A stretch of DNA of 64,000 nt from Acidimicrobiales bacterium (GTDB lineage Bacteria; Actinomycetota; Acidimicrobiia; Acidimicrobiales; Aldehydirespiratoraceae). The stretch is taken from the NCBI GenBank assembly GCA_965116965.1, contig OZ220743.1:3792418-3856417 (forward strand), given 5' to 3'. The notes beneath the pieces were generated by a model that worked only from the letters and a program-made list of their open reading frames with translations, ran no database searches and was not told where the DNA came from. The position numbers were made by a program, and so were the translations under genes. Shown piece after piece: positions 1,462-61,452 of this stretch (the stretch's first letter is position 1; every line of letters begins with the position of its first letter).

Positions 1462-1509
1462 TCTGCCCGCTGAAGCCGGCAGAGATCTCGGTTCGGAGGG
1501 CTAAGACTC

Positions 1510-2939: not shown

Positions 2940-3048
2940 CCGGCGATGACAAGGGGGCGGCTCAGGGCTGGAACTCGACGAAGCCCGGCAGCGATGGAGC
3001 CGTTGTCGGAGGCCACCGGCGACCGGGGTGGAAGCGTCGGGACAGGTC

Positions 3049-3354: not shown

Positions 3355-3365
3355 TGACAGCCAAG

Positions 3366-3734: not shown

Positions 3735-4009
3735 TCCTCGCGCACGGCCTCGGATTGGGCAGCGGCCAGTCCGGGATCGAGACGCGAGTCGACTCTGCTG
3801 TGCACCTCGTTGAGCCGTCGGGTGATCTCGCTGCGATCCTCGCGGCTCACGAGCAACGCGAGCGCCTCGGCGTAGAGCTGGGAGCGGGACAGCTTGCGGC
3901 GCTTGGCCAGACGATCGGCCTCCGCGAACAGCGGGTCGGGTATGGAGACGGCAACCTTCACAACGCGAGCATACCCGGTATGACCGCCGCGCCGATTCGG
4001 TGCCGCCAC
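3728..4009 (-). CDS. ribbon-helix-helix (CopG/MazE-like) antitoxin
   Basis: 'VKVAVSIPDPLFAEADRLAKRRKLSRSQLYAEAL' is an RHH beta-strand plus two helices. The alternative GTG at 3961 (VKVAVSIP...) may be the true start. Confidence 0.7.
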   Translation of the reverse strand: MAAPNRRGGHTGYARVVKVAVSIPDPLFAEADRLAKRRKLSRSQLYAEALALLVSREDRSEITRRLNEVHSRVDSRLDPGLAAAQSEAVREEW

Positions 4010-4076
4010 GTCTCCGTCGGTCAGCCCGGCCGGCGCCCGATCGATGCCGGCTTCGTGCCGTTGGGGACTAGTGTCC

Positions 4077-5303: not shown

Positions 5304-5444
5304 ATTGCGGTCCCCGTGGTCGAGCAGCCACTCCGGCGGCTCCCCACGGTCAGCCCCGATCCTTGGACGATGCCTCGGTCCAGCCACGGCGAGATTCTGC
5401 CCTGTTGCCGACGCCTAGTGGTGACTCCACTAAGGTCGCTAGCA

Positions 5445-6962
5445 GTGGTCAGGCGAGGACGCCCCCGCGTCGCAACCCGGTCATCTGCGATCGCCCAACT
5501 GCCGTGGCGGTCCGTGGAGAACCCGCACGGAACGCTGCAGGTGCTCGACGACGAGGGACTGTCCACGATCCACGCGGCCTCGATGCGGGTACTGGAAGAG
5601 CTCGGCATCGAGCTGTGGTCGCCGGACGCTTGCAAGCTCTTCGCCGATGCCGGCGCCATTGTCGAGGGCGAGGTGGTGCGGGTTGGCCGCGACATCGTGG
5701 AGGCCGCGCTGGCCACCGCACCGGCCAGCTTCACGCTCACCCCTCGCGACCCGGTCAAGCAGCTCCGGATCGGGGGCCGCAGCATGGCTTTCGGTCTGGT
5801 GGCCGGCCCGGCGGCGGTGCACGACGAGATCAATGGCCGTCGCAGCTCCAACATGGCCGACTACGAGAACTTCATCAGGCTGGCCCACTACTTCAACGCC
5901 ATCCACATCATCGGCAACCAGGTCGTCGCGCCGATGGAGCTGCCGGCCAACACCCGCCACCTCGACGCCTACCGGGCCAACCTGGTGCTGTCGGACCTGT
6001 CGTACCACTGCACCTCGATCGGCCGGGGCCGGGCACTCGACGGGATCCGGATGATGGCCATCAGCCGGGGCGACACGCTCGACGAGATGGCGGAATCGCC
6101 CGGGGTGACCACCATCATCAACGTGAACTCGCCGCGCCGCTTCGACGCCGAGATGGCCAACGGGCTGATAACCATGGCCGAGCACGGCCAGCCGGCGTCG
6201 GTCACCCCCTTCACGCTGATGGGAGCCATGGCCCCGGTGACACTCGCGGCTGCGCTCGTGCAGCAGAACGCCGAGGCTCTGTTCGGGATCGCCCTCACCC
6301 AGCTCGTTCGCCCAGGCGCGCCAGTGCTGTACGGCGCGTTCACCTCCAATGTCGACATGCGCTCGGGCTCGCCCGCGTTCGGCACGCCGGAGCAGGTCAA
6401 GGCCAACGTGGCGTCGGGGCAGCTGGCCCGCCACTACGGTCTTCCCTACCGGGCGTCGAACTCGAGCGCGTCAAACGTCGTGGACGCCCAGGCCGCCTAC
6501 GAGACGCAGATGTCGCTGTGGGGCTGCATCCTGGGAGGGGCCAACCTCGTGTACCACGCGGCCGGATGGATGGAGGGCGGGCTGCAGGCCAGCTACGAGA
6601 AGCTGATCCTCGACGTGGAGATGCTCCAGCAGACGATGGAGTTCCTGACACCCGTTCCCGTCGCCGGCCCGGACCTCGCCTTCGAGGCCATGCAGCGGGT
6701 GCCCACCGGCGGCCACTTCTTCGGCGACGAGCACACCCTGGAGCGCTACGAGACCGCCTTCTACCCGCCGCTGATCTCGGACTGGCAGAACCACGGCGCC
6801 TGGGCCGACTCGGGCGGGCTCAACGCCACCCAGCGGGCCACCGCCGTCTGGCAGGCGGCGCTGGAGGAGTACGTCGAACCGCCGCTCGACAGTGCCCGGC
6901 GGGAGCAACTCGACGACTACGTCGAGCGCCGCCGGCGCGAGATCGGCGACGGCGAACCCTGA
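5445..6962 (+). CDS. trimethylamine methyltransferase (MttB) family protein, non-pyrrolysine type
   Basis: 'QLPWRSVENP...LDDEGLSTIHAASMRVLEELGIE' N-terminus and MttB-like sequence throughout, with no in-frame TAG. GTG 5445 is chosen because the long upstream extension (from 5010) overlaps the divergent M24 gene. Confidence 0.85.
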   Translation: MVRRGRPRVATRSSAIAQLPWRSVENPHGTLQVLDDEGLSTIHAASMRVLEELGIELWSPDACKLFADAGAIVEGEVVRVGRDIVEAALATAPASFTLTPRDPVKQLRIGGRSMAFGLVAGPAAVHDEINGRRSSNMADYENFIRLAHYFNAIHIIGNQVVAPMELPANTRHLDAYRANLVLSDLSYHCTSIGRGRALDGIRMMAISRGDTLDEMAESPGVTTIINVNSPRRFDAEMANGLITMAEHGQPASVTPFTLMGAMAPVTLAAALVQQNAEALFGIALTQLVRPGAPVLYGAFTSNVDMRSGSPAFGTPEQVKANVASGQLARHYGLPYRASNSSASNVVDAQAAYETQMSLWGCILGGANLVYHAAGWMEGGLQASYEKLILDVEMLQQTMEFLTPVPVAGPDLAFEAMQRVPTGGHFFGDEHTLERYETAFYPPLISDWQNHGAWADSGGLNATQRATAVWQAALEEYVEPPLDSARREQLDDYVERRRREIGDGEP

Positions 6963-7008
6963 GGCCGAGCGGGCAGGCGAGCGGACCCGGTCCTCGCCGA
7001 TGAACGGC

Positions 7009-7038
7009 GATGGGGCGGGGCCGAAGCCCCGCCCCATC
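7009..7038. terminator. perfect 13-bp stem / 4-nt loop hairpin between convergent genes (candidate bidirectional terminator)
   Basis: gatggggcggggc-cgaa-gccccgccccatc lies between the mttB-like stop (6962) and the substrate-binding-protein stop (7079). A second weaker hairpin is at about 7049-7075. Confidence 0.5.
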
Positions 7039-7078
7039 AACTGTTGGTCTCTCGTGAGGCCTCAGGCCTCGAGAGTGG

Positions 7079-8302
7079 TTAGGCCGCGGCCAGAGCTGCG
7101 GCGATCCACTCGTCGGCCAGAGCGCGGTTGTCCGCGAGCCACTGGGTGGCCAGGTCGGTCGGGTCTGCGCCCTCGTCCTGCTCCACGTTGGCCAGTGACA
7201 CGTCGATCACCGACAGCTTCACCACTTCGAAGAGCGCCTCGGCGGCGGGGTTGGCCGCGAGGAAGTCGTTGTTGGCGGTGATCAGAATGTCGGCCGCTAT
7301 CCAGCCGATCGGGCACAGGCCGTCGGCGTTGTCAGCCGCCGCCGGGCACTGGTCCGGGCCGATGGCCGCGTAGCCGCCGGAACCGTCGGCACCGCGCTGG
7401 TCGTGTTCCGCGCCGCCCTCCTGGTTGGCCGGGTTGGAGTCGTCGAGGATAGCGTCGACACCCGCCCAGTAGACGTTGTCGCCCGGCCGCAGCTGGGTGA
7501 TGTACCCCGACGGGGTCCAGGTGTAGGCCACCATCGGGACGCCTTCGTTGGCGCTGTCGGCGGCCTGGGCGAACATCGCGTCATAGCCGGCGATCGTCTG
7601 CTGGATGTTGTCCCAGCCCGAGAACGCGATCTGGTTGGTGATGATGTTGTCGCAGGTCCAGGACTCGGGGCAGCCGAAGATGTCGGCGATGCCGTTGCCG
7701 GGCACGGGGTCGGTAGCATCGAACACAGCCAACGCGTCGGCGTTGCTGTTGAGCTCGTCCAGCGTATAGACGCCGTACTCGTCGGCGAAGGACTTGGTGA
7801 TCAGGAAGCCCTGCAGGCCGCCCGCGATCATCTCCTCGCCCACGATCGAGACGTGATCGCCTACCAGCGAGCCGTCGGGCAGCTCGCCCGCCAGCCACGC
7901 CAGGTGGCCCGGGTACCAGCTGTTGGGCCAGAAGTCCATGTCGCCCTGGGCCATGGCCACATAGCCGTTGTTGGGCCCGAGCTCCAGCTCGGCGGGGTCG
8001 GACACGTTGTAGCCCAGCTCCTCGAGCAGCTGCTTGTAGAGCTCGGCCTGGAAGTAGCCCGTGCTCCAGTTGGCCCGGCCGGCGATCACGTCGACGCCTT
8101 CGCCGGGCAGCATCGGCTCCTCAGCCATGGGCTCTTCTTCAGCCATCGGCTCTTCTTCAGCCATCGGCTCTTCGGCGGCCGGCTCCTCCGCAGCTGGGGC
8201 GGGCGTGGTCGTGGTGTCCTCGTCGTCGCCGCAGGATGCGGCGATCAGAGCGAAGGCCGCGAGCAAAGCGAGCATCATGCTCGCGCGCTTCTTCATTTTC
8301 AT
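7079..8302 (-). CDS. glycine betaine/proline betaine ABC transporter substrate-binding lipoprotein (ProX/OpuAC family)
   Basis: Signal peptide plus lipobox 'LIAASC', an acidic repeat linker, then an OpuAC-type fold ('ANWSTGYFQAELYKQLLEELGY', 'WPNSWYPGH'). SD AGGAGGG lies upstream of the ATG. Confidence 0.85.
   Translation of the reverse strand: MKMKKRASMMLALLAAFALIAASCGDDEDTTTTPAPAAEEPAAEEPMAEEEPMAEEEPMAEEPMLPGEGVDVIAGRANWSTGYFQAELYKQLLEELGYNVSDPAELELGPNNGYVAMAQGDMDFWPNSWYPGHLAWLAGELPDGSLVGDHVSIVGEEMIAGGLQGFLITKSFADEYGVYTLDELNSNADALAVFDATDPVPGNGIADIFGCPESWTCDNIITNQIAFSGWDNIQQTIAGYDAMFAQAADSANEGVPMVAYTWTPSGYITQLRPGDNVYWAGVDAILDDSNPANQEGGAEHDQRGADGSGGYAAIGPDQCPAAADNADGLCPIGWIAADILITANNDFLAANPAAEALFEVVKLSVIDVSLANVEQDEGADPTDLATQWLADNRALADEWIAAALAAA
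8106..8177. repeat. tandem 18-bp coding repeat (about 4 units) in the lipoprotein linker
   Basis: gccatgggctcttcttca / gccatcggctcttcttca / gccatcggctcttcggcg plus a degenerate unit. Encodes (E)EEPMA repeats just after the lipobox. Confidence 0.8.
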
Positions 8303-8444
8303 AAGGGTTCCCTCCTAGGGTGGGGCTTGTTGGGCCGGGCCAAAGGTTAGGCGGCGACCGGCCAAGGATCAACACCCGGACCGGCAACACCGCCGCGGGT
8401 TTCAGTCAATGGAAATGACGGCCTCGATGAACCGCAGCGATTTG

Positions 8445-32194: not shown

Positions 32195-33859
32195 ATGGCA
32201 GACTGCATTCAAATGACCCTGATCGACCGCGAAGCAAGTCCACGGGCCGGCGACGAGGGCGGACCGTGTAGCGAGCATGAACTTGCTCATGCTGCGTGGT
32301 CGATCGCCAGGCACGGTGGCCTTGCCGAACTCTCGGAGCCCGAGTCGGTTCTCGTCTGCGGGCTGACCATGCCCGACCGCGACCCGGGCGACGACAGACT
32401 GATCGATCTGATCCGTTCTGGTCAGGATCCACTGGGCGACACGCTCATGCGCTTGCGCTCACCTGATCAACGCAGGCCGTTCGGTGCCACGTACACACCT
32501 TCTGAGATCGTGTCCTCGATGGTCGCCTGGGTTGTCGAGCAATCAAGGCCAGACCGCGTTGTCGATCCTGGAACCGGCTCGGCGCGGTTTCTTCTGGCTG
32601 CGGGCCGCGCCCTGCCCGGTGCCCTCCTCGTCGGCGTGGAGATCGACCCGCTGGCAGCGCTGCTAGCCCGTGCCAACCTCACGGCTGTCGGACTCGACCA
32701 TCGATCGCAGATCTTGGTGCGGGACTACCGGGACGCCGACCTCGGCGAGTGCGGCGGCATCACGGCCTTCATCGGGAATCCGCCCTATGTTCGCCACCAC
32801 CAGATCGAGCCGCAATGGAAGGAGTGGCTGACTGCCAACTCTGCCTCCCTCGGACTCAAGGCCAGCGGTCTAGCCGGGATGCACGTTCACTTCATGTTGG
32901 CGACCGCCCTGCATGCCCGACCTGGCGATCTCGGCGCGTTCGTGACATCGTCGGAGTGGCTCGACGTGAACTACGGCCACCTGCCGAGGATGCTGTTCGC
33001 GACCCGACTCGGCGGAGTCTCGATCCACTTGGTCGATCCGCACACGACACCGTTCGCTGATGCGGCCGCAACAGCGGCCGTCACCTGCTTTCAGATGGGC
33101 GGACCTAGTGCGTCGATCCGCATGAAGCAGGTTCCGAGCACTTCCGACCTGGGCGCACTCGACGGAGGACAACCGTTCAGCAAGCGACAGTTGCGTTCTG
33201 CGCCGAGGTGGTCGCCCCTGCTCAACGGCTCACAGAGGCCGCCTGATGGTTACGTCGAACTGGGAGAAATCTGTCGTGTGCATCGGGGTGCAGTGACAGG
33301 TGCCAACGCCATATGGATCACCGATGCCAACGATCCTGCTCTTCCTTCAGAGGTACTCTTCCCCTCCGTCACACGCGCGGTCGAACTGTTCGGCGCAACT
33401 GACGGCGTCCTCTCGGACACGGACGGCTTACGAGCGGTGATCGACCTGCCAGCCGATCTCGACGCGCTCGACGAGGACGACCGTCACCGCATCGACCAGT
33501 TTCTGCGAGTTGCGGAGCGCAACGGGGTTCGTTCCGGCCATATCGCTCGCAACCGCAACCCGTGGTGGGCCGTGGGCCTGCGGTCTCCTGCTCCAATCCT
33601 CGCCACCTACATGGCACGTCGTCCTCCAGCGTTCGTTCGAAACCTGGCTGGCGCCCACAACATCAATGCCGTACACGGCATCTACCCCCGGGAGTCGATG
33701 TCGCCAGCGATTCTGGACACGTTGGCAGCTGCGCTGCGTGATGCAGCCCCCACAGCGATCGGACGCACCTACGCCGGTGGCCTCTTGAAATTCGAGCCAT
33801 CGGAGATGGCAAGGATCTTCGTCCCGAGTCCGACAATGCTCGAAACGATGGAAACATGA
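32195..33859 (+). CDS. N6-adenine DNA methyltransferase (gamma-class, Eco57I/TaqI-like)
   Basis: Motif order X-I-IV: 'GATYTPSEIVSSMV', 'VVDPGTGSARFLLAA', 'FIGNPPYVRHHQ', plus a C-terminal target-recognition region. ATG 32195; the upstream part of the 701-aa ORF overlaps the SDR gene antisense. Confidence 0.85.
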   Translation: MADCIQMTLIDREASPRAGDEGGPCSEHELAHAAWSIARHGGLAELSEPESVLVCGLTMPDRDPGDDRLIDLIRSGQDPLGDTLMRLRSPDQRRPFGATYTPSEIVSSMVAWVVEQSRPDRVVDPGTGSARFLLAAGRALPGALLVGVEIDPLAALLARANLTAVGLDHRSQILVRDYRDADLGECGGITAFIGNPPYVRHHQIEPQWKEWLTANSASLGLKASGLAGMHVHFMLATALHARPGDLGAFVTSSEWLDVNYGHLPRMLFATRLGGVSIHLVDPHTTPFADAAATAAVTCFQMGGPSASIRMKQVPSTSDLGALDGGQPFSKRQLRSAPRWSPLLNGSQRPPDGYVELGEICRVHRGAVTGANAIWITDANDPALPSEVLFPSVTRAVELFGATDGVLSDTDGLRAVIDLPADLDALDEDDRHRIDQFLRVAERNGVRSGHIARNRNPWWAVGLRSPAPILATYMARRPPAFVRNLAGAHNINAVHGIYPRESMSPAILDTLAAALRDAAPTAIGRTYAGGLLKFEPSEMARIFVPSPTMLETMET

Positions 33860-34797
33860 GCACGACTGACCCGCCTCGCTGGAGCGGAGCTGAGTTCGCG
33901 GAACAGCTCGCGACGGCGTCAGCCGCGTTCCGCGAGGAACGGCTTCGGGAGCCAGTCGAGCAATACAGAGAAATCTTCGACGGGTACGCCGCACGCGTGA
34001 GAGCGCTGCTAACCGGAACCAAGAACTTGACAAGCTGGGACGACGCCTTAGAGATCGCTCTCCAAGAGGATGTAGGGCTGGACGCGCTGCGATACCTAGC
34101 AGGCCCACCGATCTCCGCCGACGACCTCAAGACTCTCGCCGAGGCCTCGCTGGCTTCAAGCCGGCTGCGCGGGGATCCTGAAATGGCAGCACGAGTTCTC
34201 GACGTTGTGCTGAAGAGTCTTGACGCCAAGCGCTTCCCATGGGTGGCCGAACACCGCAGTCCCGACGAAGCGGAACTAAGTGCAGCGTCATTGGCATCGG
34301 CGAGCCTCATGGCGATGCAGCGGGTACTCACAGACCGAAAGAACGTTGCGAAGACCAGGCAGGAGAGACAAGTAGCCGACTTCCTGACGGAGATCGGACT
34401 CACTGAAGTTGACCGGCGGGCAATCAGCACCCACTCGGACGCTCCAGATCGCGGATCGTTCTGCGGGGAGAGCTTGTTCGGCGAGGACAAGGCGGACCTC
34501 ATCGCGCACTTGTTCGACGGTCGCCTCATGCCGATCGAATGCAAGGTGTCGAACTCGGCGACGAACTCCGTCAAGCGGCTGAAGGAGGCGTACAACAAGG
34601 CGGCGCGCTGGTTGGATGCGTTCGGCAAGCGCCAGACCGTTCCGGCCGCGGTCCTGTCGGGCGTGTTCAAACAGCACAATCTTGCTCAAGCACAGGAAAC
34701 TGGCTTGACGATCTTCTGGGCACACAACCTGGAGCCGCTGGGCGAGTTCATAGGGTCCACAGCAGACCTGGCTCACAGTAGTGGGACCACGCAATGA
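33856..34797 (+). CDS. type II restriction endonuclease, XamI-like (PD-(D/E)xK)
   Basis: ATGA overlap with the methyltransferase stop. 'ADLIAHLFDGRLMPIECKVSNSATNSVKRL...VLSGVF...AQ..GLTIFWAH' resembles the RE_XamI family core and contains a D...E-x-K signature. Confidence 0.6.
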   Translation: MSTTDPPRWSGAEFAEQLATASAAFREERLREPVEQYREIFDGYAARVRALLTGTKNLTSWDDALEIALQEDVGLDALRYLAGPPISADDLKTLAEASLASSRLRGDPEMAARVLDVVLKSLDAKRFPWVAEHRSPDEAELSAASLASASLMAMQRVLTDRKNVAKTRQERQVADFLTEIGLTEVDRRAISTHSDAPDRGSFCGESLFGEDKADLIAHLFDGRLMPIECKVSNSATNSVKRLKEAYNKAARWLDAFGKRQTVPAAVLSGVFKQHNLAQAQETGLTIFWAHNLEPLGEFIGSTADLAHSSGTTQ

Positions 34798-34895
34798 CGG
34801 AGGCTGGGCACCCCTGCCGCAATTGTGGTAGCTGACCGAGATGCGAGGAGGTCAAGCAGGCCACGCATGGTTAGATCTATAGCCCTTTACATGAT

Positions 34896-34924
34896 TTGAC
34901 AGACTATTTCATGTGTGTCAGAAT
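34896..34924 (+). promoter_or_regulatory. candidate sigma70-type promoter for the m5C methyltransferase operon
   Basis: TTGACA (34896-34901), 17 nt, CAGAAT (34919-34924), in an AT-rich gap. Overlaps the short inverted repeat TGACA...TGTCA. Confidence 0.3.
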
Positions 34925-35006
34925 GATCTAGAGCGTTCGTCCCCTGCGAGATCCACTTCGTCGGCTACTACCGTGCTCAACCTCCGCTGGGAAAGGGAAC
35001 CACCAA

Positions 35007-35942
35007 GTGATCCACCCGAGTTCACGCCCGGTTGCTGCGATCGACCTCTTTTGCGGCGCGGGCGGACTCTCGTATGGCCTAGAGGCAGCCGGCGTGAACG
35101 TGCTTGCCGGCGCCGACATCGATCCATCCTGTCGATACCCGTTCGAGGTGAACATCGAGGGCGCGAGGTTTCTTGAACGAGACGCCTGCCTCCTTGCGCC
35201 GGAGGAACTCGTCGAGATCTGGCCTCAGGACTCCCTCAGGCTCCTCGCAGGCTGCGCTCCGTGCCAGCCCTTCTCCCCCTATCAGCGCGGTCGCGGGACG
35301 CCCAGTGACTCTAGATGGCCCTTGCTTCGCGAGTTCGGTCGCCTGGTGAAGGCCACCCAGCCAGAACTCGTGACAACTGAGAACGTGCCACGGTTGATGG
35401 GTACCTCAGTCTTCAAGGCCTTCGTCGAACTCTTGCTTGACCTCAACTATTCGATTGCGTACCGCACATGCAACTGTGCCGACTATGGCTTGCCGCAGAA
35501 GCGCAGGCGATTGGTGCTCATCGCATCCAGGCTCGGACCGATAGACATCCCAGACGGCCATCTCTCGGGATTGCAGCCCAGAACGGTAGGCGACGCAATA
35601 CGTCGCTTACCTCCGATTGCGTCCGGAGAGGCTGACGCCGCCGACGCGCTTCACCGCAGCAGAACGTTGCAGGAGATCAATCGACGACGAATACAGGCAT
35701 CAGTACCAGGAGGAAGTTGGTACGACTGGCCTGAGGAGTTGCGAGCTCCGTGTCATCGCCGGGCGAGTGGCAGAAGGTTCAGGAATGTGTATGCACGGAT
35801 GTCGTGGGATGAACCAGCACCCACCCTCACCACCTACTTCCACAATTTTGGTGCTGGGCGGTACGGCCATCCCGAGCAAGATCGGGCCATCTCAATCCGC
35901 GAGGGCGCAATGCTGCAAGGTTTTCCGGCGCTTCGCGTTTGA
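35007..35942 (+). pseudogene. DNA (cytosine-5)-methyltransferase, 5' part (motifs I-IX), interrupted by IS insertion after codon 306
   Basis: GTG 35007. 'DLFCGAGGLSYG' (I), 'GCAPCQPFS' (IV), 'TTENVP' (VI), 'QKRRRLVLIA' (VIII), 'REGAMLQGFP' (IX). The last 5 codons (ALRV*) derive from the IS left end. Confidence 0.85.
35919..35926. repeat. 8-bp target-site duplication, left copy (GGTTTTCC)
   Basis: An identical octamer flanks the other IS end at 37341-37348. Confidence 0.8.
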
Positions 35943-37340
35943 GGTCGGAGTGGGGGCGGTAGGGGTCCGCGGCTGAACGCGAGGGATCCCCCAGAATCGG
36001 CGCTTCCGAACAGCCGAGGTCTGGAGGATCCCTGTGGAGTGCGACCCTACGCGCGTGTGCGAGTTGTTGGTGGGACTGGGAGATGTGGAGGTGCTCGGCG
36101 TCGACGACGAGGCGGGCGCGCCGCTGCGGGTGCACATACGCTGTCGGGCGCCGCGGCCTGGCTGTGAGCGTTGCGGCGGTGCGCTGTGGTCTGACGGCGA
36201 ACGGGAGGTGGAGCTGGTGGATCTGCCGGTGTTCGGCCGGCCGGCGCGGCTGGTGTGGCACAAGCGCCGCTGGCGCTGCGGGGATCCCGACTGCGCGGCG
36301 GGGACCGTGACCGAGCAGGACCGCGAGATCGCGCCCGAGCGCGAGAGACTGACGACGCGCGCGGGGCGCTGGGCGACGCGCCAGTCCGGGCAGGGCCGGC
36401 CCCACAGCGATGTCGCCACAGAGCTCGGGTGCAGCTGGCACCCGGTGAACGAGTCGGTGCGCCGCTGGGGCTCTGCGCTGCTCGAGGCCGACACCGAGCG
36501 CATCTGCGATGTGGTCGCGCTCGGCCTCGACGAGCACCTGATGTGGCGCCGCGGCCGGTTCCGGACCAAGGCCTGGGCCACCGGCATCGTCGACATCGGC
36601 CGGGGCCAGCTCCTCGACATAGTCCCAGGCCGCACCGCACAGGCGCCCACACAGTGGCTGCTTGCGCGGCCCCGCCGCTGGCTGGCCGGCGTCCGCTGGG
36701 CGGTGCTGGACCTCTCAGGCCCCTACCGAGCCGCGTTCGACGCAGCAGTGCCCCACGCCGAGCAGGTCGCGGACCCGTTCCACGTCGTGCGGCTGGGCAA
36801 CGACGCCCTCGACGAGGTCCGCCGCAGAGTCCAACAGCAGACCCTCGGCCACCGCGGCCACAAACACGACCCGCTGTATCGGGCCCGCAAGCTGCTGGTC
36901 TCCGCGTCCGAGAAGATCACCGAGCAAGGCCGCGTCCGGCTGCGGGGCCTGCTCGACGCAGGAGACCCCTACGGCGAGGTCCGCGACGCCTGGCACCGCT
37001 GAAGAGACCCTCCGCTCGATCTATGACATCGACGACACCGAAGTGGGCGCAGCCACCGTCGCCCGCCTCGCCCAGGACCTCCAGGACCCCGCCATGCCCG
37101 CCGAGATCAACCGGCTCGGCCGCACCCTGTGGCGCTGGCGCACCCAGATCGCCAACTGGCACACCGCCCGGGTCACCAACGCCGCCGCCGAAGCCGCCAA
37201 CAACCTCATCAAACGCGTCAAACGCGCCGCGTTCGGGTTCACCAACTTCGCCAACTACCGAATCCGAGCCCTCCTCTACGCCGGCAGACCCAACTGGACA
37301 CTGCTCGACACCCTCACTCCGACCTGATTCGCGAAGAGCC
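35927..37340 (+). mobile_element. ISL3-family insertion sequence (1,414 bp)
   Basis: About 30-bp imperfect terminal inverted repeats (GGCGCTTCGCGTTTGAGGTCGGAGTGGGGG versus the reverse complement of the right end GGCTCTTCGCGAATCAGGTCGGAGTGAGGG, 25/30), an 8-bp direct repeat and an ISL3-type transposase ORF. Confidence 0.85.
36034..37327 (+). pseudogene. ISL3-family transposase, frameshifted near 36997
   Basis: 322-aa ORF (zinc-ribbon 'CERCGG...RRWRCGDPDC', HTH, DDE region) stops at 37000-02. The rest ('ETLRSIYDI...NWHTARVTNAAAEAANNLIKRVKRAAFGFTNFANYRIRALL') continues in the +1 frame. One extra C in 'caccgct' explains the shift. Confidence 0.8.
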
Positions 37341-37496
37341 GGTTTTCCTGCAAATTATGACTTTGTGGAGCCTGGGTCGCCAATCAGTTACACCACTCTC
37401 GGCAGACTGATCGGCAACGCCGTTCCTCCGCCGCTTGGAGCAGCGATTGGAAGAACCATCATCAAGCACATCGGAGGTATGAGCAAGAATGACTGA
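37341..37496 (+). pseudogene. DNA (cytosine-5)-methyltransferase, 3' part (motif X) displaced by the IS
   Basis: 'GFPANYDFVEPGSPISYTTLGRLIGNAVPPPLGAAIGRTI...' contains motif X 'GNAVPP'. Removing the IS and one TSD copy restores a 355-codon ORF (35007..35926 + 37349..37496). Confidence 0.85.
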
Positions 37497-39507
37497 AGAC
37501 CACATGTACACAATGACTGTGGATTTCGCGATCGTTGAGTCCTTGGGAATCAATCTCTATAGCAACGCCGCTGCCGTACTCTCTGAACTGGTTGCGAATG
37601 CATATGACGCCGATGCGACCGTCGTCCAGATCACATGGAAGACTGATGATGCCCAGGATGTCGTAGAGATCATCGACAATGGTTGCGGAATGGATATCAC
37701 TAACATCAACAAGAAGTTCCTCGTTACCGGGTATAAGAAACGAGAGAACGAAGGTAACGTATCACAAGAATGGGAACGCCCTTTCATGGGGCGCAAAGGG
37801 ATCGGCAAGTTATCTGTCTTCTCAATTGCGCGACATGTCCAAGTCTATTCTTCAAAGACCGGCTCCGATAGTCTCGGATTAGAGATTCGTATCGAGGAAC
37901 TCGAGAAACGAATCAAGGCGAAGAAGCCCTACCATCCTGATCCCATTGAGGTTCCAGGGGAGTATCGTAGCAAAGACACGAGAATAGTACTAAGAAACCT
38001 AAAGCGCAAGCGCGCCGATTTGACGGTAGCAGCCTTGCGCAAGCGACTAGCCCGACGCTTTGACGTTCTTGATCAAACTCCTCCATCAGAGGGCGGTTTC
38101 AAGATCCAAATCAACGGTGAAGACGTTACGTACGCCGATCGTCAAGAACTCAAGAGACTGGAGTATATTTGGGAGTTCGGCCACGAGTCTCTTCCAGTTG
38201 AGGCGTTACCAGCTGACATCGTCAGGTTCACACTCCCCAACAAGATTGTGCAACCTGGAAAGGACTGGGTTATCGATGGCTGGATAGGAACAGCTCGCGT
38301 ACCCTCGGACCTTACCGCTGACAAAGAAGCGGGATCGCTGAAGAACATCATTGTGCTCGCGAGAAAGCGTCCGATCCAGGAGGGCATCATCGACAAACTA
38401 GACTTCTCGAGGGTCTTTGGTAACTATGTCACAGGCCAAATCGAGGCAGATTTCTTAGATCAAGAGGGTGAGGACGATATTGCAACTAGTGACAGGCAAC
38501 GGCTTATTGAAGATGATCCACGAGTTCAGGCTCTCCAAGAGTTTCTTCGCGATGCGTTTTCGAAGGCGTCAGATACATGGAATAGCGTGCGGCCCAGGCG
38601 AAAAGCGAAAGATGCATTCGCCGATAACCCAAAGCTCCGAGAGTGGGTAGACGGACTGCCCCCGTGGCAACAAGGGTCAGCCGAGAAGCTAATTGGAACG
38701 ATTGCAGCACTCCCGATGGAAAAGGGACGAGAACAAGCTCACCGAAGTGACTTGTATCGCGCAGGCATACTGGCATTCGCTAGGATTGGCTTGAGACAGA
38801 CCAGTGAAGATCTAAGCACCTTGAGTGACTTTAATGCAGAGGAACTGTTGCGATTGTTGGGGGCCCAAGACGAATATGAAGAAGCACTCTGGGTCGATAT
38901 CTTGAAGTCACGTGTACAGGCAATTCAACAATTCGAGAACCTCACGAGCACTGACGAGAAAGAGGAGGTCCTACGCAACCACCTATTTGATCACTTGTGG
39001 CTCCTGGATGCCTCATGGGAAAGAGCTACCGGTGATCCCAAGATGGAGGAGGATCTCCGGAAGGTTGATCCCGAACTGTTTCCTGTAGACGCCGAAGGCA
39101 AGGAGATTCGCGGACGCATGGACCTTAGATTTGCTAAGGCGACTGGTGTCCATATCATTGTGGAACTCAAGCGGTATTCCAGAAGGATGAAGATTGAAGA
39201 TCTGGTTTCGCAGGGTCGAAAATACCGCGCAGGTGTTGAGAGCATTTTAACTCAACAAGGAGAGAAGTTCCCGCGCATTGAGGTGGTATTCGTCATAGGC
39301 TCTAAGCCGCGCGTTTCAGATCTCGGTAGATTCTCTACGGATCATGAGGCTATCGAATACGCACTCTATGCGATCGCAGGCCGGTACGTCCTCTATGATG
39401 AACTGATCGCGAGTGCTTGCAAGCGATACGATGACTACTTCAACGCGAGCAGGAAGGCTCGTGAGTTGGATGATGTCTTGAACTCCTTGATCCCGAGCGA
39501 ATCGTGA
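37489..39507 (+). CDS. GHKL-superfamily ATPase (HATPase_c_3 / MORC-MutL-like) fused to a C-terminal PD-(D/E)xK nuclease-like domain
   Basis: 672 aa. Bergerat motifs 'ELVANAYDA' (N37, D40), 'DNGCGM' (63-68) and 'GRKGIGKLS'. C-terminal 'HLWLLDASWE...GRMDLRF...HIIVELKRY' (D545, E559-x-K561). ATG 37489 overlaps the methyltransferase stop (ATGACTGA). Clearly A/T-richer codon usage than the neighbours. Confidence 0.8.
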   Translation: MTEDHMYTMTVDFAIVESLGINLYSNAAAVLSELVANAYDADATVVQITWKTDDAQDVVEIIDNGCGMDITNINKKFLVTGYKKRENEGNVSQEWERPFMGRKGIGKLSVFSIARHVQVYSSKTGSDSLGLEIRIEELEKRIKAKKPYHPDPIEVPGEYRSKDTRIVLRNLKRKRADLTVAALRKRLARRFDVLDQTPPSEGGFKIQINGEDVTYADRQELKRLEYIWEFGHESLPVEALPADIVRFTLPNKIVQPGKDWVIDGWIGTARVPSDLTADKEAGSLKNIIVLARKRPIQEGIIDKLDFSRVFGNYVTGQIEADFLDQEGEDDIATSDRQRLIEDDPRVQALQEFLRDAFSKASDTWNSVRPRRKAKDAFADNPKLREWVDGLPPWQQGSAEKLIGTIAALPMEKGREQAHRSDLYRAGILAFARIGLRQTSEDLSTLSDFNAEELLRLLGAQDEYEEALWVDILKSRVQAIQQFENLTSTDEKEEVLRNHLFDHLWLLDASWERATGDPKMEEDLRKVDPELFPVDAEGKEIRGRMDLRFAKATGVHIIVELKRYSRRMKIEDLVSQGRKYRAGVESILTQQGEKFPRIEVVFVIGSKPRVSDLGRFSTDHEAIEYALYAIAGRYVLYDELIASACKRYDDYFNASRKARELDDVLNSLIPSES

Positions 39508-39619: not shown

Positions 39620-40453
39620 GTGGCTGAGCTTCAGGGGTTCATGTACCCGAGGACACCGACCGGGGCAGCGGGCATCGTGCCTGCGCCGCCCTGGCACTAC
39701 TCCGGCGACATGTTGACGGTGGAGTACCGCACCGACCCGGACCGGGTGGCCGAACTGCTGCCCGAGCCGCTGGAGCCCGCCGACACCGACCCCGGCGCGG
39801 TGGCCATGATCTGGGCCGAGTGGCAGAGCTGCGGCGACACCTTCGAGGAGTTGCTCGACCCGGTGCGGGCCCAGTACCGGGAGGTGTTCGCGGTGGTGCG
39901 CTGCAAGTTTCGGGGCTCCACCTACAGCCGGGCGGCCTACATCTGGGTTGACAAGGACTTCGCCATGGCCAGGGGCCACTTCCAGGGCTACCCCAAGAAG
40001 ATGAGCGAGATCGCCATGACTCGGCCGGTGACCGCGGGACGGGCCGGGCCGCGCCTGGAGGTGGGCGGCCGCTTCGGAGCGACTCTCAGCACCTGGGGAC
40101 GGCGCATCGCCGAGGCCCGGTTCACGATCACCGGCACCGCCGACACCCCCGGCTTCGTCAACGGCCACCCCATGCTGCACAGCCGCCAGATGCCGTCCAT
40201 CGAGGCCGACGGGGACGACTCGCTCGACGAGCTGGTCACCATGCGGGGCTACGACGCCGACTTAGGGCCGGTGTACGCGGGTGACGCCGAGCTGGTCCTG
40301 CCCGAGTGCCCCACCGAGGAGCTGCACCGCCTGCCGCCCATCGAGATGATCGGCGGCTACTACCGCCAGATCGGCATGTCCATGGCCGGGGGCACGACCC
40401 TGTGGGCCGCCCCCAACCCCAGAGGCCGAGCGAACATCCGCGAATCATCATGA
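39620..40453 (+). CDS. acetoacetate decarboxylase (ADC) family protein
   Basis: 'PAPPWHYSGDMLTVEYRTDPDRVAELLPEPLEP' and the following beta-cone-like sequence are typical of the ADC family. GTG start. Confidence 0.75.
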   Translation: MAELQGFMYPRTPTGAAGIVPAPPWHYSGDMLTVEYRTDPDRVAELLPEPLEPADTDPGAVAMIWAEWQSCGDTFEELLDPVRAQYREVFAVVRCKFRGSTYSRAAYIWVDKDFAMARGHFQGYPKKMSEIAMTRPVTAGRAGPRLEVGGRFGATLSTWGRRIAEARFTITGTADTPGFVNGHPMLHSRQMPSIEADGDDSLDELVTMRGYDADLGPVYAGDAELVLPECPTEELHRLPPIEMIGGYYRQIGMSMAGGTTLWAAPNPRGRANIRESS

Positions 40454-40519
40454 GAGTTCTCAGGGCATCGAGCGAGGCCGTGGCCCGAGCGGCCCGTGAG
40501 CGAAGCGAACAAGAGCGGG
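40418..40519 (+). repeat. dispersed ~100-nt repeat, copy 1 (48-nt invariant core 40472-40519)
   Basis: Core gcgaggccgtggcccgagcggcccgtgagcgaagcgaacaagagcggg is identical in copies 1, 2 and 4. The 5' arm supplies the last codons and the TGA of the ADC-family gene. An 8-bp stem hairpin (agagcggg...cccgctct) follows. Confidence 0.85.
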
Positions 40520-40580
40520 AGACACAACATCGCAGCGCGACCCGCTCTGAATCCGTGCACGCTCGCGCGGGAGCCGGTTC

Positions 40581-41861
40581 ATGAGCACAGTGACGGCCGC
40601 GTTCGTGGACGGCTACCTGGACGACCACGGCCACGACGACGCCGACCTGTCCTCGCACGATTCGTTCACCTCCGGGGTGCCCCACGCCACCTTCAGCCGG
40701 CTGCGCCGCGAGGACCCGGTGCACTGGACGCCCGAGGCCGGCGGCTCCGGCTTCTGGTCGGTGACCCGCTACCACGACGCCCTGGCCGTGAGCCGCGACG
40801 TCGAGACGTTCACCTCCAGCCGGGGCATCCGCCTCGAGGAGATGGACGACGACGAGCTCGAGGCCCGCCGCACGATGATGGAGCTCGACCCGCCCGAGCA
40901 CACCCGGCTGCGGCGGCTCGTCAACCGGGGATTCACCCGCCGCACCGTCGAGTCCTACGAGGACTCCATCCGGGCCCTGGCCGCCGAAGTGCTCGACGAG
41001 GCCCTCGCCGCCGACGCCTTCGACTTCGTCACCGAGGTGGCGGCCAAGCTGCCCATGCGGATGCTGGGCCGGCTGCTGGGCACCAGCGACGCCGACGGCC
41101 ACCAGCTCGTGGAGTGGGGCGACGCCTTCCTGGGCAACAGCGACCCCGAGTTCACCACCCATGTGATCGACACGGCCGACACCGAGGAGTACCGGCTCAT
41201 GCCGTTCCGCAGCCCGGCCGCCATCGAGGTGTTCGACTACGCCGAGCGCCAGGCCGTGGAGCGCCGGGCCTGCCCCCGCAACGACGTGATCACCCAGCTG
41301 CTGGCCCCCACCCGCGACGGCGAGCCCCTCAGCGACCTGGAGTTCAAGAACTTCTTCACCCTGCTCATCGCGGCGGGCAACGACACCACCCGCTACACCA
41401 TGACCCACGGCTTGCGGACCATGATGCTCCACCCGAGCCTGTGGCAGGCCTGGCGGGCCGACCCGTCGCTCACCGCGACGGCAGTGGAGGAGATCCTGCG
41501 CACCAGCGCGGTGACCATGCACTTCCGCCGCACCGCCACCCGTGAAGTCACCCTCGGCGGGAAGAACATCGCGGCCGGCGACAAGGTGGTGATGTGGTTC
41601 TGCTCCGCCAACCACGACGACGACGGGTTCCCCCATCCCTGGCGCTTCGACCTGGCCCGTGACCCCAACGACCACATGGCGTTCGGGCGCAACGGCCCCC
41701 ATCTGTGCCTGGGAGCGTGGCTGGCCCGCATGGAGGCCCGCCTGGTGTTCGAGGAACTCATGAAGCGGGTCGAGCGCCTCGAACCCGACGGCGAGCCCCA
41801 GTACCTGCGCTCCAACTTCATAGCCGGCATCAAGCACCTGCCCGTCCGGGTGGTGGCATGA
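40581..41861 (+). CDS. cytochrome P450
   Basis: I-helix 'AAGNDTT', 'EEILR' (ExxR) and heme loop 'FGRNGPHLCLGAWLAR'. Confidence 0.9.
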   Translation: MSTVTAAFVDGYLDDHGHDDADLSSHDSFTSGVPHATFSRLRREDPVHWTPEAGGSGFWSVTRYHDALAVSRDVETFTSSRGIRLEEMDDDELEARRTMMELDPPEHTRLRRLVNRGFTRRTVESYEDSIRALAAEVLDEALAADAFDFVTEVAAKLPMRMLGRLLGTSDADGHQLVEWGDAFLGNSDPEFTTHVIDTADTEEYRLMPFRSPAAIEVFDYAERQAVERRACPRNDVITQLLAPTRDGEPLSDLEFKNFFTLLIAAGNDTTRYTMTHGLRTMMLHPSLWQAWRADPSLTATAVEEILRTSAVTMHFRRTATREVTLGGKNIAAGDKVVMWFCSANHDDDGFPHPWRFDLARDPNDHMAFGRNGPHLCLGAWLARMEARLVFEELMKRVERLEPDGEPQYLRSNFIAGIKHLPVRVVA

Positions 41862-41890
41862 TGCTGCCCAACTAGCGGGAGACTTGAACC

Positions 41891-42751
41891 ATGGGATCGA
41901 TTGTGGGGGCCGCGCTCGTCTCGCACGTGCCGCCGCTGGTGATGCCCGAGCACGAGCGCCGGGCCCTCAACGACGGTGAGGACACCACGCTGTTCGCGGG
42001 CCTTCACGCCCTGCGGACCGAGCGTCTCTCGCCCGCCGCGGCCGACACCGTTGTGGTGATCGACACCCACTGGTTCACCACCGTCGAGCACGTCGTGACG
42101 GCCCATGCAAGGCGCAAGGGCCTGTTCACCTCCGACGAACTGCCCCGCGGCATGAGCGCCATGCCCTACGACATGCCCGGCGACCCCGAGCTGGCCCGCG
42201 CCTTCGAGGCTGCGGCCGCAGACCGCGACGACACTTGGGTGACGGCCACCGACGACCCGCACCTGCCGGTGCACTACCCCACCGTGAACCTGCTCGGCTT
42301 CCTGCAGGGCGACGAGCGCTGGGTGTCGATGGGCGTGTGCCAGACCGCCGAGCCCTACGACTTCCTGCTGGCCGGCCGGCTGCTGGCCGAAGCCGTAGCG
42401 GCTCTCGATCGCAGGGTGGTGGTCCTGGCCAGCGGCGGGCTAAGCCACCGGTTCTGGCCGCTTCGCCAGTTCCGCGACCACGAGGCCGCCGATCCCGACC
42501 TTCACATCCGCACCCCCGAAGCGGCCGCGGCCGATCGAGCGGTGCTGGCCTGGATGGCCGCCGGCGACCACGCCGCCATCATCGACTTCGTGCCCGAGTT
42601 CTCCCGCCACGCCCCCGAGGGCTACTTCGGCCATTACCTGACCATGGTGGGCGCGCTGGGCGGCGCGGCCTGCACCGCTCGGGGCGTCCAGTTCGGTCAG
42701 TACGAGTCGGTGTCGGGGACGGGTCAGGCCCACGTATGGTTTGACCTGTGA
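41891..42751 (+). CDS. class III extradiol ring-cleavage dioxygenase (LigB family)
   Basis: 286 aa. 'GAALVSHVPPL', 'VVIDTHWF', 'HYPTVNLL', 'ASGGLSH' and 'GHYL' resemble LigB/2-aminophenol dioxygenase-type motifs. Confidence 0.75.
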   Translation: MGSIVGAALVSHVPPLVMPEHERRALNDGEDTTLFAGLHALRTERLSPAAADTVVVIDTHWFTTVEHVVTAHARRKGLFTSDELPRGMSAMPYDMPGDPELARAFEAAAADRDDTWVTATDDPHLPVHYPTVNLLGFLQGDERWVSMGVCQTAEPYDFLLAGRLLAEAVAALDRRVVVLASGGLSHRFWPLRQFRDHEAADPDLHIRTPEAAAADRAVLAWMAAGDHAAIIDFVPEFSRHAPEGYFGHYLTMVGALGGAACTARGVQFGQYESVSGTGQAHVWFDL

Positions 42752-44957: not shown

Positions 44958-45048
44958 CTCAGAGGCCGAGCGAACGCGCGACCGAATCCGCCCCATACGG
45001 GCGAGGCCGTGGCCCGAGCGGCCCGTGAGCGAAGCGAACAAGAGCGGG
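44958..45048 (+). repeat. dispersed repeat, copy 2
   Basis: Identical 48-nt core (45001-45048) preceded by the 'cagaggccgagcgaac' arm. Lies between two minus-strand genes, 4 nt from the ACAD stop. Confidence 0.85.
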
Positions 45049-55161: not shown

Positions 55162-56154
55162 GTGACCGTCACCATCGGTGAACTCCTGCAGGCCAAGGGA
55201 TACGTCGTGGCCGACGGGGCCATGGGGACCCAGCTCTTCGCGGTGGGGCTCAGCGCCGGCGACCCTCCCGAGGCCTGGAATGTGCATCACGCCGACGAGG
55301 TGCGAGCCATCCACCGGGCCTACCTGCAGGCCGGGGCCGATCTGGTGATCACCAACAGCTTCGGGGGAACCTCGTTCCGCCTGGCCCTGCACAGCCTCCA
55401 GGACAGGGTGGTCGAATTGAACGAGGCCGCGGCCCGCGTCGCCCGCATCGAAGCCGACGCCGAGTCCGAGCGGACCGGCCGCCCGGTGCTGGTGGCCGGC
55501 TCGATGGGTCCGTCCGGGGAGCTGCTGGAGCCGATGGGGAACATGTCGGCCGCGGCGTGCGAGGCCGCCTTCGCCGAGCAGGCCGAGGGTCTGGCCGTAG
55601 GTGGCGCGGATGTGCTCTGGATCGAGACAATGAGCGATCTCGACGAGTTGGAGGCCGCGGTACGGGGAGCTCGCTCGGCCTGTGATCTTCCGGTGGCCGC
55701 GACCATGAGCTTCGACACGGCCGGACGCACCATGATGGGCATCACCGGCACCGAGATGGCCGAACGTCTGGACGGGCTGGGCTTGGCGGCCATGGGCGCC
55801 AACTGCGGCAACAACGTTGCTGACACCGAGGCGGCCGTCGGCGCGGTGGCCGCGGCGTCGACGGGCACCCCGGTGATCTCCAAACCCAACGCGGGTGTGC
55901 CGGTGTGGAGTGGCGACGCACTGGTCTACGACGGCACCCCCGAAGTGCTGGCCGCCCACGCCCACCGGGCCCGGGCCGCCGGGGTGGCCGTGATCGGCAG
56001 CTGCTGCGGAAGCACCCCGACCCACACCGCCAAGATCGCGGCCGTGCTGGCCGGCGACGAGCCGCCCCCCGACATCGAGGCCGCACCCCCATCAGCCGTA
56101 CCGGGCACAGAGGACCGCCTAGCCCGCCGCCGCACCCGCCGCCGTACCCACTAG
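55162..56154 (+). CDS. homocysteine S-methyltransferase domain protein (BHMT/MmuM-like)
   Basis: 'DGAMGTQL', 'ITNSFG', 'GANCG', 'IGSCCGSTPTH' (zinc-binding Cys). GTG 55162. Confidence 0.85.
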   Translation: MTVTIGELLQAKGYVVADGAMGTQLFAVGLSAGDPPEAWNVHHADEVRAIHRAYLQAGADLVITNSFGGTSFRLALHSLQDRVVELNEAAARVARIEADAESERTGRPVLVAGSMGPSGELLEPMGNMSAAACEAAFAEQAEGLAVGGADVLWIETMSDLDELEAAVRGARSACDLPVAATMSFDTAGRTMMGITGTEMAERLDGLGLAAMGANCGNNVADTEAAVGAVAAASTGTPVISKPNAGVPVWSGDALVYDGTPEVLAAHAHRARAAGVAVIGSCCGSTPTHTAKIAAVLAGDEPPPDIEAAPPSAVPGTEDRLARRRTRRRTH

Positions 56155-56252
56155 TGGTCCGTCGCTGAAATGATCGGGGCGTCCGGAGCGCTCTCAAGCA
56201 GGGTCTCGGTCCTGCTGCGCTGCCCTAGCCATTTCGACGACACAGCACTAGT
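56151..56252. repeat. 102-bp long-hairpin (MITE/REP-like) element, copy A
   Basis: CTAGTG...CACTAG termini with about 21-nt imperfect terminal inverted repeats and nested internal pairings (gcagg/cctgc, agcgc/gcgct, gggc/gccc). 99/102 identical to copy B. Contains the stop codons of both convergent flanking genes. Confidence 0.85.
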
Positions 56253-58303: not shown

Positions 58304-58615
58304 ATGGCCGATACGACCGCAGGCGGGCACCACTACGTCCCTGAAGTCGTGCTGCCTCCGGGCGACACGCTCGCCGAGGTGCTAGAGGAGAGGGGCATCG
58401 CTCCAGCCGAATTCGCCGAGCGCACCGGCCTGTCGGTCGAGCACGTCAACCTGATGATCGGCGGCCAGGCGCCCGTAACCCTCGAGATCGCCGAAATGCT
58501 GGAGCGTGAGACCGGAGTCTCGGCAGAGGTGTGGGCGAACCTCGAGGCCGCGTTTCGAGCGTACGAGACGCGCATTCGGGCACGCGCCGACCGAGGCCTA
58601 GTGGTCCGTCGCTGA
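58304..58615 (+). CDS. higA: HigA-family antitoxin (XRE HTH)
   Basis: 'PPGDTLAEVLEERGIAPAEFAERTGLSVEHVNLMIGGQAPVTLEIAEML'. Its last 6 codons and stop lie inside repeat copy B. Confidence 0.8.
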   Translation: MADTTAGGHHYVPEVVLPPGDTLAEVLEERGIAPAEFAERTGLSVEHVNLMIGGQAPVTLEIAEMLERETGVSAEVWANLEAAFRAYETRIRARADRGLVVRR

Positions 58616-58699
58616 AATAATCGGGGTGTCCGGAGCGCTCCCAAGCAGGGTCTCGGTCCTGCTGCGCTGCCCTAGCCATTTCGACGACACAGCACTAGT
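58598..58699. repeat. 102-bp long-hairpin element, copy B
   Basis: Differs from copy A at 3 positions. Lies between the convergent higA and sucD genes. Confidence 0.85.
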
Positions 58700-61352: not shown

Positions 61353-61420
61353 GAGTCTCTGCCATCCACCGAGCGAGGCCGTGGCCCGAGCGGCCCGTGA
61401 GCGAAGCGAACAAGAGCGGG
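61318..61420 (+). repeat. dispersed repeat, copy 4
   Basis: Identical 48-nt core (61373-61420). The 5' arm aligns with copy 1, including the TGA used as a stop by the upstream gene. Ends about 30 nt before the AlaX start. Confidence 0.85.
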
Positions 61421-61452
61421 CATTCACCGCTGACGCGCACACTGGAGGCCCT

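Follow-up and report, generated by a model that had tools for sequence, protein, structure and literature searches.

The gene at positions 37489–39507 (+ strand) of a 64,000-nucleotide stretch of an Acidimicrobiales bacterium genome (contig OZ220743.1 of GenBank assembly GCA_965116965.1; the whole stretch is hereafter called the window) very probably encodes, as judged from its sequence, an ordinary member of the catalogued HgiDII/BbrUII restriction-enzyme family, that is, the R gene of a two-gene Type II restriction-modification (R-M) module. Systems of this kind are already known, and the gene should be annotated as 'BbrUII/HgiDII family restriction enzyme' and not as a novel effector of defence. 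A first-pass annotation had presented the gene as an uncharacterised candidate effector, a label that gives way to a curated family in which R.HgiDII was described in 2008 as a two-domain, GHKL-domain Type II enzyme (PMC2441816). The locus is unusual in that its 5-methylcytosine (m5C) methylase is split by an insertion sequence (IS), beside a nuclease gene that is still intact. What is added here is the assignment of the C-terminal fold, an explicit tie of a classical Type II family to the GHKL-Shedu nucleases, and the case of an IS-orphaned nuclease beside a methylase that is probably iso-specific.

Family membership and domain architecture

The open reading frame (ORF) runs unbroken from its ATG, has 672 codons and encodes 672 amino acids (aa). 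The protein matches the NCBIfam equivalog NF050001, "BbrUII/HgiDII family restriction enzyme", with 760.4 bits against a curated cutoff of 550, and the match spans aa 7–667 of the protein and positions 1–659 of the 659 of the hidden Markov model (HMM). In PADLOC-DB it receives the label REase_II (PDLC03419, E = 5.8e-152); the REase_II models match 66/66 diverse relatives, and the SduA models give weak matches to 1–2 members per model among the same set. Of the 8000 word-sharing candidates scored, more than 2900 proved homologous at E ≤ 1e-5, and a library clustered at 50% identity gave 375 cluster representatives at E < 1e-30, the best-scoring matches listed being mostly full-length. The closest relatives are proteins from metagenome-assembled genomes (MAGs) of Acidimicrobiia, 74–81% identical and mostly labelled only 'ATP-binding protein'; most of the plasmid-borne relatives in Rhizobium and haloarchaea, which adjoin Dcm genes, bear the same label. 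M.HgiDII is an experimentally characterised m5C methylase with the target GTCGAC (PMC5867850, PMC6329791), and in Bifidobacterium breve UCC2003 transformation is limited by three characterised R-M systems, BbrUII among them. By transfer from these named family members, GTCGAC with m5C protection is the predicted target of the 37489–39507 enzyme. The gene and its domains are as follows.

37489–39507, + strand: restriction endonuclease gene, BbrUII/HgiDII family (intact ORF, NF050001, PADLOC REase_II, family-conserved residues)
37570–37950, + strand: GHKL (Bergerat-fold) ATP-binding domain, aa 28–154, with E33, N37, D63-x-G-x-G67 and the lid G101-R-K-G-I-G-K107 (Pfam HATPase_c_3, conservation)
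37966–38517, + strand: GHKL-associated middle (transducer) domain of the Hsp90/TRAP1/MORC2/SMCHD1 type, about aa 160–343, holding the invariant R336 (AlphaFold2, Foldseek)
38518–38988, + strand: all-helical linker or arm, about aa 344–500 (AlphaFold2 secondary structure and confidence)
38989–39504, + strand: C-terminal PD-(D/E)xK nuclease domain, Shedu (SduA_C/DUF4263)/NucS-like, with E520, D545, E559-x-K561 and Q575-xxx-Y579 (model, Foldseek, Pfam matches of relatives)

The Bergerat motifs listed in the first-pass annotation are present, ELVANAYDA from aa 33, DNGCGM from aa 63 and GRKGIGKLS from aa 101, and Pfam HATPase_c_3 matches aa 28–154 with E = 3.9e-18. Its nuclease signature of D545, E559 and K561 is likewise in place, with NHLFDHLWLLDASWE ahead of it at aa 497–511. 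In an alignment of 66 cluster representatives, E33, N37, D40, D63, G65, G67, G101, K103, G104, G106, K107 and R336 are invariant, and E520, D545, E559, K561, Q575 and Y579 are conserved in at least 90%; the window protein carries every family-conserved residue of the ATPase and the nuclease. Because these representatives are only 29–59% identical to the query, the ATPase and nuclease motifs are more than chance resemblances.

A full-length AlphaFold2 model, built with 61 homologues as input, has a mean predicted local distance difference test (pLDDT) score of 75.6. Confident modelling extends from aa 1 to about 343, with pLDDT 80–93 in the middle domain, and in Foldseek searches with the full model 430–500 columns align with the N and M domains of TRAP1/Hsp90 and with the ATPase modules of MORC2 and SMCHD1, at E-values down to 4e-12. 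The part from about aa 344 to 500 is all-helical and partly of low confidence, aa 435–479 lying below pLDDT 50. The roughly 400 aa said to match nothing recognisable thus consist in part of an Hsp90/MORC-type middle domain, followed by a helical linker.

Since Hsp90 and TRAP1 swamped the whole-model search and left it uninformative on the nuclease, aa 480–672 were modelled separately, giving pLDDT 82.7. PD-(D/E)xK nucleases dominate the ranked Foldseek list for this model (best E = 0.019), including EndoMS/NucS with probability 0.96–0.97 and a root-mean-square deviation of 4.2 Å over 140 columns, and E. coli Shedu SduA (8ps5) with probability 0.66; the other matches are bunyavirus and arenavirus cap-snatching endonucleases, BspD6I, FokI and Cas4-like proteins. 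Among the 66 relatives, Pfam detects SduA_C (formerly DUF4263; PF14082) in 24, with a best E of 2.2e-5, PDDEXK_4 in 13 and NucS_C in 3. A sequence search of the PDB returned marginal GHKL matches only (MutL, PMS2 and Hsp90), and no match for the C-terminus. On the basis of the consistency of the fold matches, the conservation of the motifs and the Pfam matches of relatives, the C-terminus is placed among the Shedu/NucS-like members of the PD-(D/E)xK superfamily, a domain that in R.HgiDII had not been assigned to any fold in 2008 (PMC2441816). The initial reading of a GHKL ATPase with a C-terminal PD-(D/E)xK nuclease, upheld by Pfam, Foldseek and conservation, proved right, and the hunch of a DUF4263/Shedu- or NucS-like domain is probably right as well.

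The cytosine methylase partner and its interruption

The genomic context was surveyed with one genome per species, which gave 80 loci, 78 of them with enough upstream DNA to be informative. An orthologous Dcm-type methylase is directly adjacent in 71/78, and this answers favourably the check on neighbouring m5C methyltransferase genes that the first-pass annotation had proposed. In 68 loci the orthologue (45–89% identical) directly precedes the nuclease gene on its own strand, the alignment gap being −4 to 207 nt, and in 3 it is convergent and just downstream. Six loci are without an orthologous methylase: L012, L049 and L063 have a more divergent Dcm within about 2 kb, L033 has a weak Dcm match (30% identical) about 2.3 kb downstream on the opposite strand, and L056 and L044 are the two remaining exceptions, which together with L012 sit among other defence-type genes. 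Pairing at this frequency is the signature of an R-M module and is unexpected for a methylation-independent nuclease.

The neighbourhoods of the exceptional loci are varied. L056 has an MmeI-like enzyme upstream, and a Schlafen/AlbA_2-HATPase_c_4-Fic-like gene and a 1346-aa helicase downstream; a DEAD/MZB helicase of 1812 aa lies near L012 and a SIR2-like gene near L044, and in L049 a GIY-YIG gene stands between Dcm and the nuclease. Among the Pfam-scanned neighbours of the loci without an orthologous Dcm, large helicase genes occur near L012 and L056 only, and Pfam finds no helicase in the R-M island of the window at 31.7–39.5 kb. Classification as a prokaryotic MORC proper (Iyer, Abhiman and Aravind 2008) was rejected, given that their operon partnership with a superfamily II helicase, known from Type I/III-like R-M systems, is not seen in the window.

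The nuclease gene overlaps the methylase frame at its 5′ end. Its ATG lies within ATGACTGA, with an 8-nt overlap with the TGA (37494–37496) of the frame that carries methylase motif X (GNAVPP), and GGAGG is found 10 nt upstream of the ATG. The frame ending at 37496 holds the last 52 codons of the methylase only, and the first 306 are at 35007–35926. Thus the intact 672-codon ORF whose ATG at 37489 overlaps the methylase-frame stop was correctly described at the outset. The further reading of an operon with an m5C methylase and an R-M-like system stands for the family, as the survey shows, but not in full for this genome, where the methylase is split by an IS and only its last 52 codons adjoin the nuclease gene. 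The parts of the broken gene are as follows.

35007–35926, + strand: 5′ part of the cognate m5C methyltransferase (M.HgiDII-like), motif I to the first half of motif IX (…REGAMLQGFP) (Pfam DNA_methylase, E = 3.9e-40, positions 3–290 of 324)
35927–37340, + strand: ISL3-family insertion sequence, 1414 bp, between the methylase halves (inverted repeats, target duplication, empty site in L001/L003)
36034–37327, + strand: ISL3 transposase gene, frameshifted near 36990–37005, the ORF 36034–37002 continuing in another frame to 37327 (Pfam)
37341–37496, + strand: 3′ methyltransferase remnant with the second duplication copy, the rest of motif IX (ANYDF) and motif X (GNAVPP) (translation)

The insertion point falls inside methylase motif IX (LQGFP|ANY). 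The element ends in imperfect inverted repeats of about 30 nt (GGCGCTTCGCG… / GGCTCTTCGCG…; the 32-nt arms are 84% complementary), and on either side of it stands one of two perfectly matching copies of the 8-bp target duplication, GGTTTTCC, at 35919–35926 and 37341–37348. These repeats, the duplication and a DDE_Tnp_ISL3 transposase are the features of the ISL3 family. In the transposase the Pfam DDE_Tnp_ISL3 match, above cutoff, is split between two frames (positions 1–143 in one and 152–239 in the other), and Zn_ribbon_ISL3 and HTH_Tnp_ISL3 also match, both below the Pfam gathering cutoffs. The Acidimicrobiia MAGs L001 and L003 have the empty site, their alignment with the window breaking exactly at 35929/37341. 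In-silico excision of the IS together with one duplication copy restores an in-frame methylase of 355 aa with all m5C motifs, which matches TIGR00675 dcm with 120 bits. Interrupted in this way, the pair in this genome is not a working two-gene system. The insertion is probably recent, since neither methylase half has further lesions.

All HgiDII/BbrUII family features examined were found, namely the full-length HMM match, the GHKL motifs and an adjacent m5C methylase gene. The window protein shares with R.HgiDII (Herpetosiphon) and R.BbrUII the full-length, equivalog-level match to NF050001, with R.HgiDII the GHKL N-terminal domain (PMC2441816), and with both systems an upstream co-oriented Dcm-type methylase, of about 355 aa once restored. 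It differs from them in the ISL3 element that interrupts this methylase.

The 672-aa protein is 100% identical in two other public assemblies with the same right IS junction, and the identical gene is present in ENA ERZ25072196 and ERR14375724. The independent assembly L081 (ENA ERZ25072196, a 313-kb contig, compared over 1–8430) matches the window at 99.9% identity to the right, starting with the IS, and has the identical transposase frame split. To the left of the IS, L081 differs wholly, with a DDE_Tnp_1 (IS4-like) transposase, a Vsr gene, a second Dcm and MTaX1 gene and another ISL3 copy, and the 8 bp beside the IS also differ from those of the window. The left-side difference reflects an IS-mediated rearrangement or, alternatively, chimeric assembly at the repeat.

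The base composition of the nuclease gene, 50.5% G+C against about 68–70% in the flanks and roughly 68% in the genome, had been noted at first pass in the form of A/T-rich codons and taken to argue for horizontal acquisition. The compositional difference holds, but recent acquisition, as read from the low G+C, was rejected. Low G+C is a family-wide trait: across 59 loci the nuclease gene averages 11.5 points below its flanks, with a gradient of nuclease < methylase < flank. L001 and L003 are syntenic with the window over the whole island and the acetoacetate-decarboxylase/P450 flanks, at 81–88% nucleotide identity, and have the island at the same chromosomal position. The low G+C is therefore no sign of recent acquisition by this strain. 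In comparison with L001, the proportions of nonsynonymous (pN) and synonymous (pS) differences in the nuclease gene are 0.12 and 0.74, respectively, and the gene has been under purifying selection in the lineage. In the same comparison the synonymous sites of the nuclease gene are saturated and those of the adjacent methylase are not (pS 0.42), which suggests that nuclease and methylase differ in their mutational or recombinational histories.

Some observations concern the surroundings of the island. Directly downstream, 39620–42751 holds ordinary genes of metabolism, for acetoacetate decarboxylase, cytochrome P450 and a LigB-type dioxygenase, with 85–89% nucleotide identity in Acidimicrobiia MAGs, a conservation that assigns the host to this class. 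No tRNA genes, sought as an island landmark, were found in the 64-kb window. A G+C-rich repeat of about 50 nt (GAGCGAGGCCGTGGCCCGAGCGGCCCGTGAGCGAAGCGAACAAGAGCGGG) has at least 3 copies in the window (40466–40519, 44994–45048 and 61370–61421) and may be of the repetitive extragenic palindromic (REP) kind. Another repeat of about 100 nt, with the ends CACTAGTGG / CACTAGT, lies at 56151–56251 and 58592–58698, with a third copy in L081 at 1429–1535, and may be like a miniature inverted-repeat transposable element (MITE).

The upstream XamI-type system and possible protection of the host

A second R-M system, followed by a candidate promoter of the methylase-nuclease operon, lies upstream of the broken methylase.

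32195–33859, + strand: N6-adenine DNA methyltransferase (Type II), ORF open from 31754, probable start 32195 (Pfam N6_Mtase and Eco57I; PADLOC MTase_II PDLC03222, E = 1.6e-191)
33856–34797, + strand: XamI-family Type II restriction endonuclease, 313 aa, intact, its ATG overlapping the N6 methylase stop (Pfam RE_XamI, E = 3.6e-37, positions 10–256 of 256; PADLOC REase_II, E = 7.4e-58)
34896–34924, + strand: promoter-like site TTGACA-17-CAGAAT with an upstream TG, ahead of the methylase-nuclease operon (consensus scan only, 10/12 matches, weak)

The start of the N6 methylase was placed at 32195, where the homologue alignments begin. An RE_XamI nuclease with an adjacent N6-adenine methylase is the arrangement of XamI-family R-M systems, and the nuclease is 70–71% identical to its orthologues in L001 and L003 over aa 1–307. 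XamI (Pfam PF09572) is probably a SalI isoschizomer with the target GTCGAC, a background assignment that belongs to REBASE and Pfam; a literature search gave no support for this target, the sole biological paper found to mention XamI listing its PD-(D/E)xK family and no target. BbrII is presumably a SalI neoschizomer, for which the literature search gave no support either. Like the HgiDII type, the XamI/SalI type is a two-gene module with translational coupling of methylase and nuclease, probably with the same GTCGAC target, but its methylase acts on N6 of adenine, and its nuclease, of 313 aa, is small, unrelated and devoid of an ATPase. The two systems are separated by a 209-bp A+T-rich spacer (34798–35006) of lower G+C than the flanks, which also contains AGATCTA/TCTAGA palindromes that could be an operator.

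GTCGAC occurs at 47 sites in the 64-kb window, about one per 1.4 kb. At this density an unprotected active enzyme would be lethal and, with the cognate methylase split, the host must be protected otherwise. The most likely route is that N6-methyladenine (m6A) from the upstream XamI-type methylase, which probably modifies the same hexamer, may shield the host from the orphaned nuclease. Depletion of GTCGAC, which might betray an active enzyme, was examined (47 sites observed, 68.5 expected) and set aside as uninformative, since CTCGAG and TGGCCA are similarly depleted.

In 16/80 loci (L001, L003, L006, L010, L014, L020 and L026 among them), many of which are without a XamI nuclease, the Dcm-nuclease pair is accompanied by a linked homologue of the N6 methylase. 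Two paralogous copies are present in L006 and L020, and L026 has a remnant copy between both systems. This recurrence suggests that the two systems, for which GTCGAC is probably the common target, are functionally connected. A division of the N6 methylases into two clades, XamI-linked and Dcm-linked, was not supported by a neighbour-joining tree.

Proposed mechanism and competing explanations

The clamp behaviour of GHKL proteins such as MutL, Hsp90, MORC and the type II topoisomerases is established. By analogy with MutL, MORC, Hsp90 and the Shedu nuclease VcSduA, ATP binding would dimerise the GHKL heads and close a clamp around DNA, R336 of the transducer domain would sense the gamma-phosphate, and the C-terminal active sites formed by D545, E559 and K561 would cut unmethylated targets, while the co-transcribed and translationally coupled m5C methyltransferase would normally protect host DNA. 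The likeness to MutL, MORC and Hsp90 lies in the GHKL and transducer-domain fold, together with weak sequence matches to MutL and PMS2; the query differs in its fused PD-(D/E)xK nuclease and in a role in R-M, not in repair or chromatin.

By architecture, the nearest relative with experimental tests is VcSduA, a stand-alone GHKL-DUF4263 Shedu nuclease formerly classed as paraMORC3, in which E27A (ATPase) and K557A (nuclease) each abolish phage defence (PMC12137116). The first-pass annotation held single-chain GHKL-nuclease effectors paired with a Dcm-type methylase to be experimentally uncharacterised; a single-chain GHKL-DUF4263 nuclease, VcSduA, has since been tested with both types of mutant. 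A type 1D Shedu class has been described (bioRxiv 10.1101/2023.08.10.552793), and paraMORC3 has E-D-ExK motifs (PMC2292703). These proteins share with the window protein the GHKL ATPase, the middle domain and a nuclease domain, which in the window protein is probably DUF4263-like, as well as the conserved GHKL catalytic Glu and the PD-(D/E)xK Lys, K561 in the query and K557 in VcSduA. In contrast, Shedu is a stand-alone gene without a methylase, whereas the HgiDII family is nearly always paired with Dcm and is classed as REase_II, and its sequence similarity to SduA models is marginal. The protein is consequently not a Shedu in the stand-alone sense and is marginal as one by sequence; it probably works in a Shedu-like manner, as the analogy suggests.

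For the survival of the nuclease gene beside a broken methylase, protection by m6A is rated somewhat more likely than a nuclease gene that is intact on paper and functionally silent, an unexpressed or subtly inactivated relic for which cross-protection would be unneeded. Silence of this kind is conceivable but doubtful. It would agree with the destruction of the cognate methylase where GTCGAC is frequent and with the position of the IS, which separates the R gene from the promoter-like site at 34896 by 1.4 kb of inserted DNA and breaks the translational coupling, and the recent look of the insertion means that visible damage may not yet have built up. However, all invariant and nearly invariant family residues are kept, the protein is identical in the two other assemblies with the same IS junction, and the GGAGG upstream of the ATG is in place. 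Furthermore, the transposase and nuclease genes are co-oriented and no terminator-like site lies between them on the + strand, so transcriptional read-through from the IS into the nuclease gene is possible.

Loss of the methylase would be harmless if the protein were a stand-alone, methylation-independent anti-phage nuclease of the Shedu type (type I-D, VcSduA/paraMORC3-like). The VcSduA-like architecture with its similarly placed lysine, the intact nuclease left without a methylase, and the loci L056, L044 and L012, which are without an orthologous Dcm and amid other defence genes, are consistent with this, but the directly adjacent orthologous Dcm kept in 71/78 loci, the equivalog-level match to a restriction-enzyme family and the contrast between the few, weak PADLOC SduA matches and the universal REase_II matches among the 66 relatives make it improbable. 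Least credible of all is a modification-dependent (Type IV-like) nuclease acting on m5C DNA, with the IS disruption of Dcm having resolved a conflict between the two genes. GHKL/MORC-type proteins have been linked to the reading of methylation marks (PMC2292703), and here it is the methylase that is broken and the nuclease that is intact; nonetheless, a co-oriented and often overlapping Dcm-nuclease pair, conserved in 68/78 loci, would be suicidal, and the catalogue entries for HgiDII and BbrUII are of Type II, with methylases that protect.

When the parts are joined, the HgiDII/BbrUII enzymes may be ATP-gated clamp nucleases of the Shedu type that are tied to Dcm and bridge R-M and Shedu; here such an enzyme would have been kept with an iso-specific m6A methylase, and the window would hold an orphan enzyme tolerated only via cross-protection. 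This combined reading is put forward tentatively, as plausible rather than probable. Several points weigh against the main explanation, that of an HgiDII-type R gene with an ATP-gated mechanism and cross-protection. A live R-M system would not be expected to combine an undamaged nuclease gene with a destroyed cognate methylase. The GTCGAC target of the 37489–39507 enzyme is predicted by family transfer, that of XamI is a background assignment, and m6A protection against an HgiDII-type enzyme is a proposal. As regards the fold, a profile search of the kind anticipated by the first-pass annotation gave the expected HATPase_c_3 at the N-terminus, but for the window protein itself no Pfam match to SduA_C (DUF4263), PDDEXK_4 or NucS_C at E ≤ 1, and all Foldseek E-values for the nuclease domain are at least 0.019. 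With respect to the ATP gate, no statement was found in the literature on an ATP need of HgiDII/BbrUII cleavage, and enzymes of this type were reportedly first found in standard Mg2+ assays, which is awkward for an obligatory gate.

As a gene call, 37489–39507 matters little, as it belongs to a curated restriction-enzyme family. Most database copies, however, are labelled 'ATP-binding protein', so that many such R-M systems are under-annotated. Through the fold assignment a classical Type II enzyme becomes linked with the GHKL-Shedu nucleases, which suggests that both work by an ATP clamp, and the locus itself offers a natural test case for cross-protection, or 'incompatibility', of R-M systems with a target in common.

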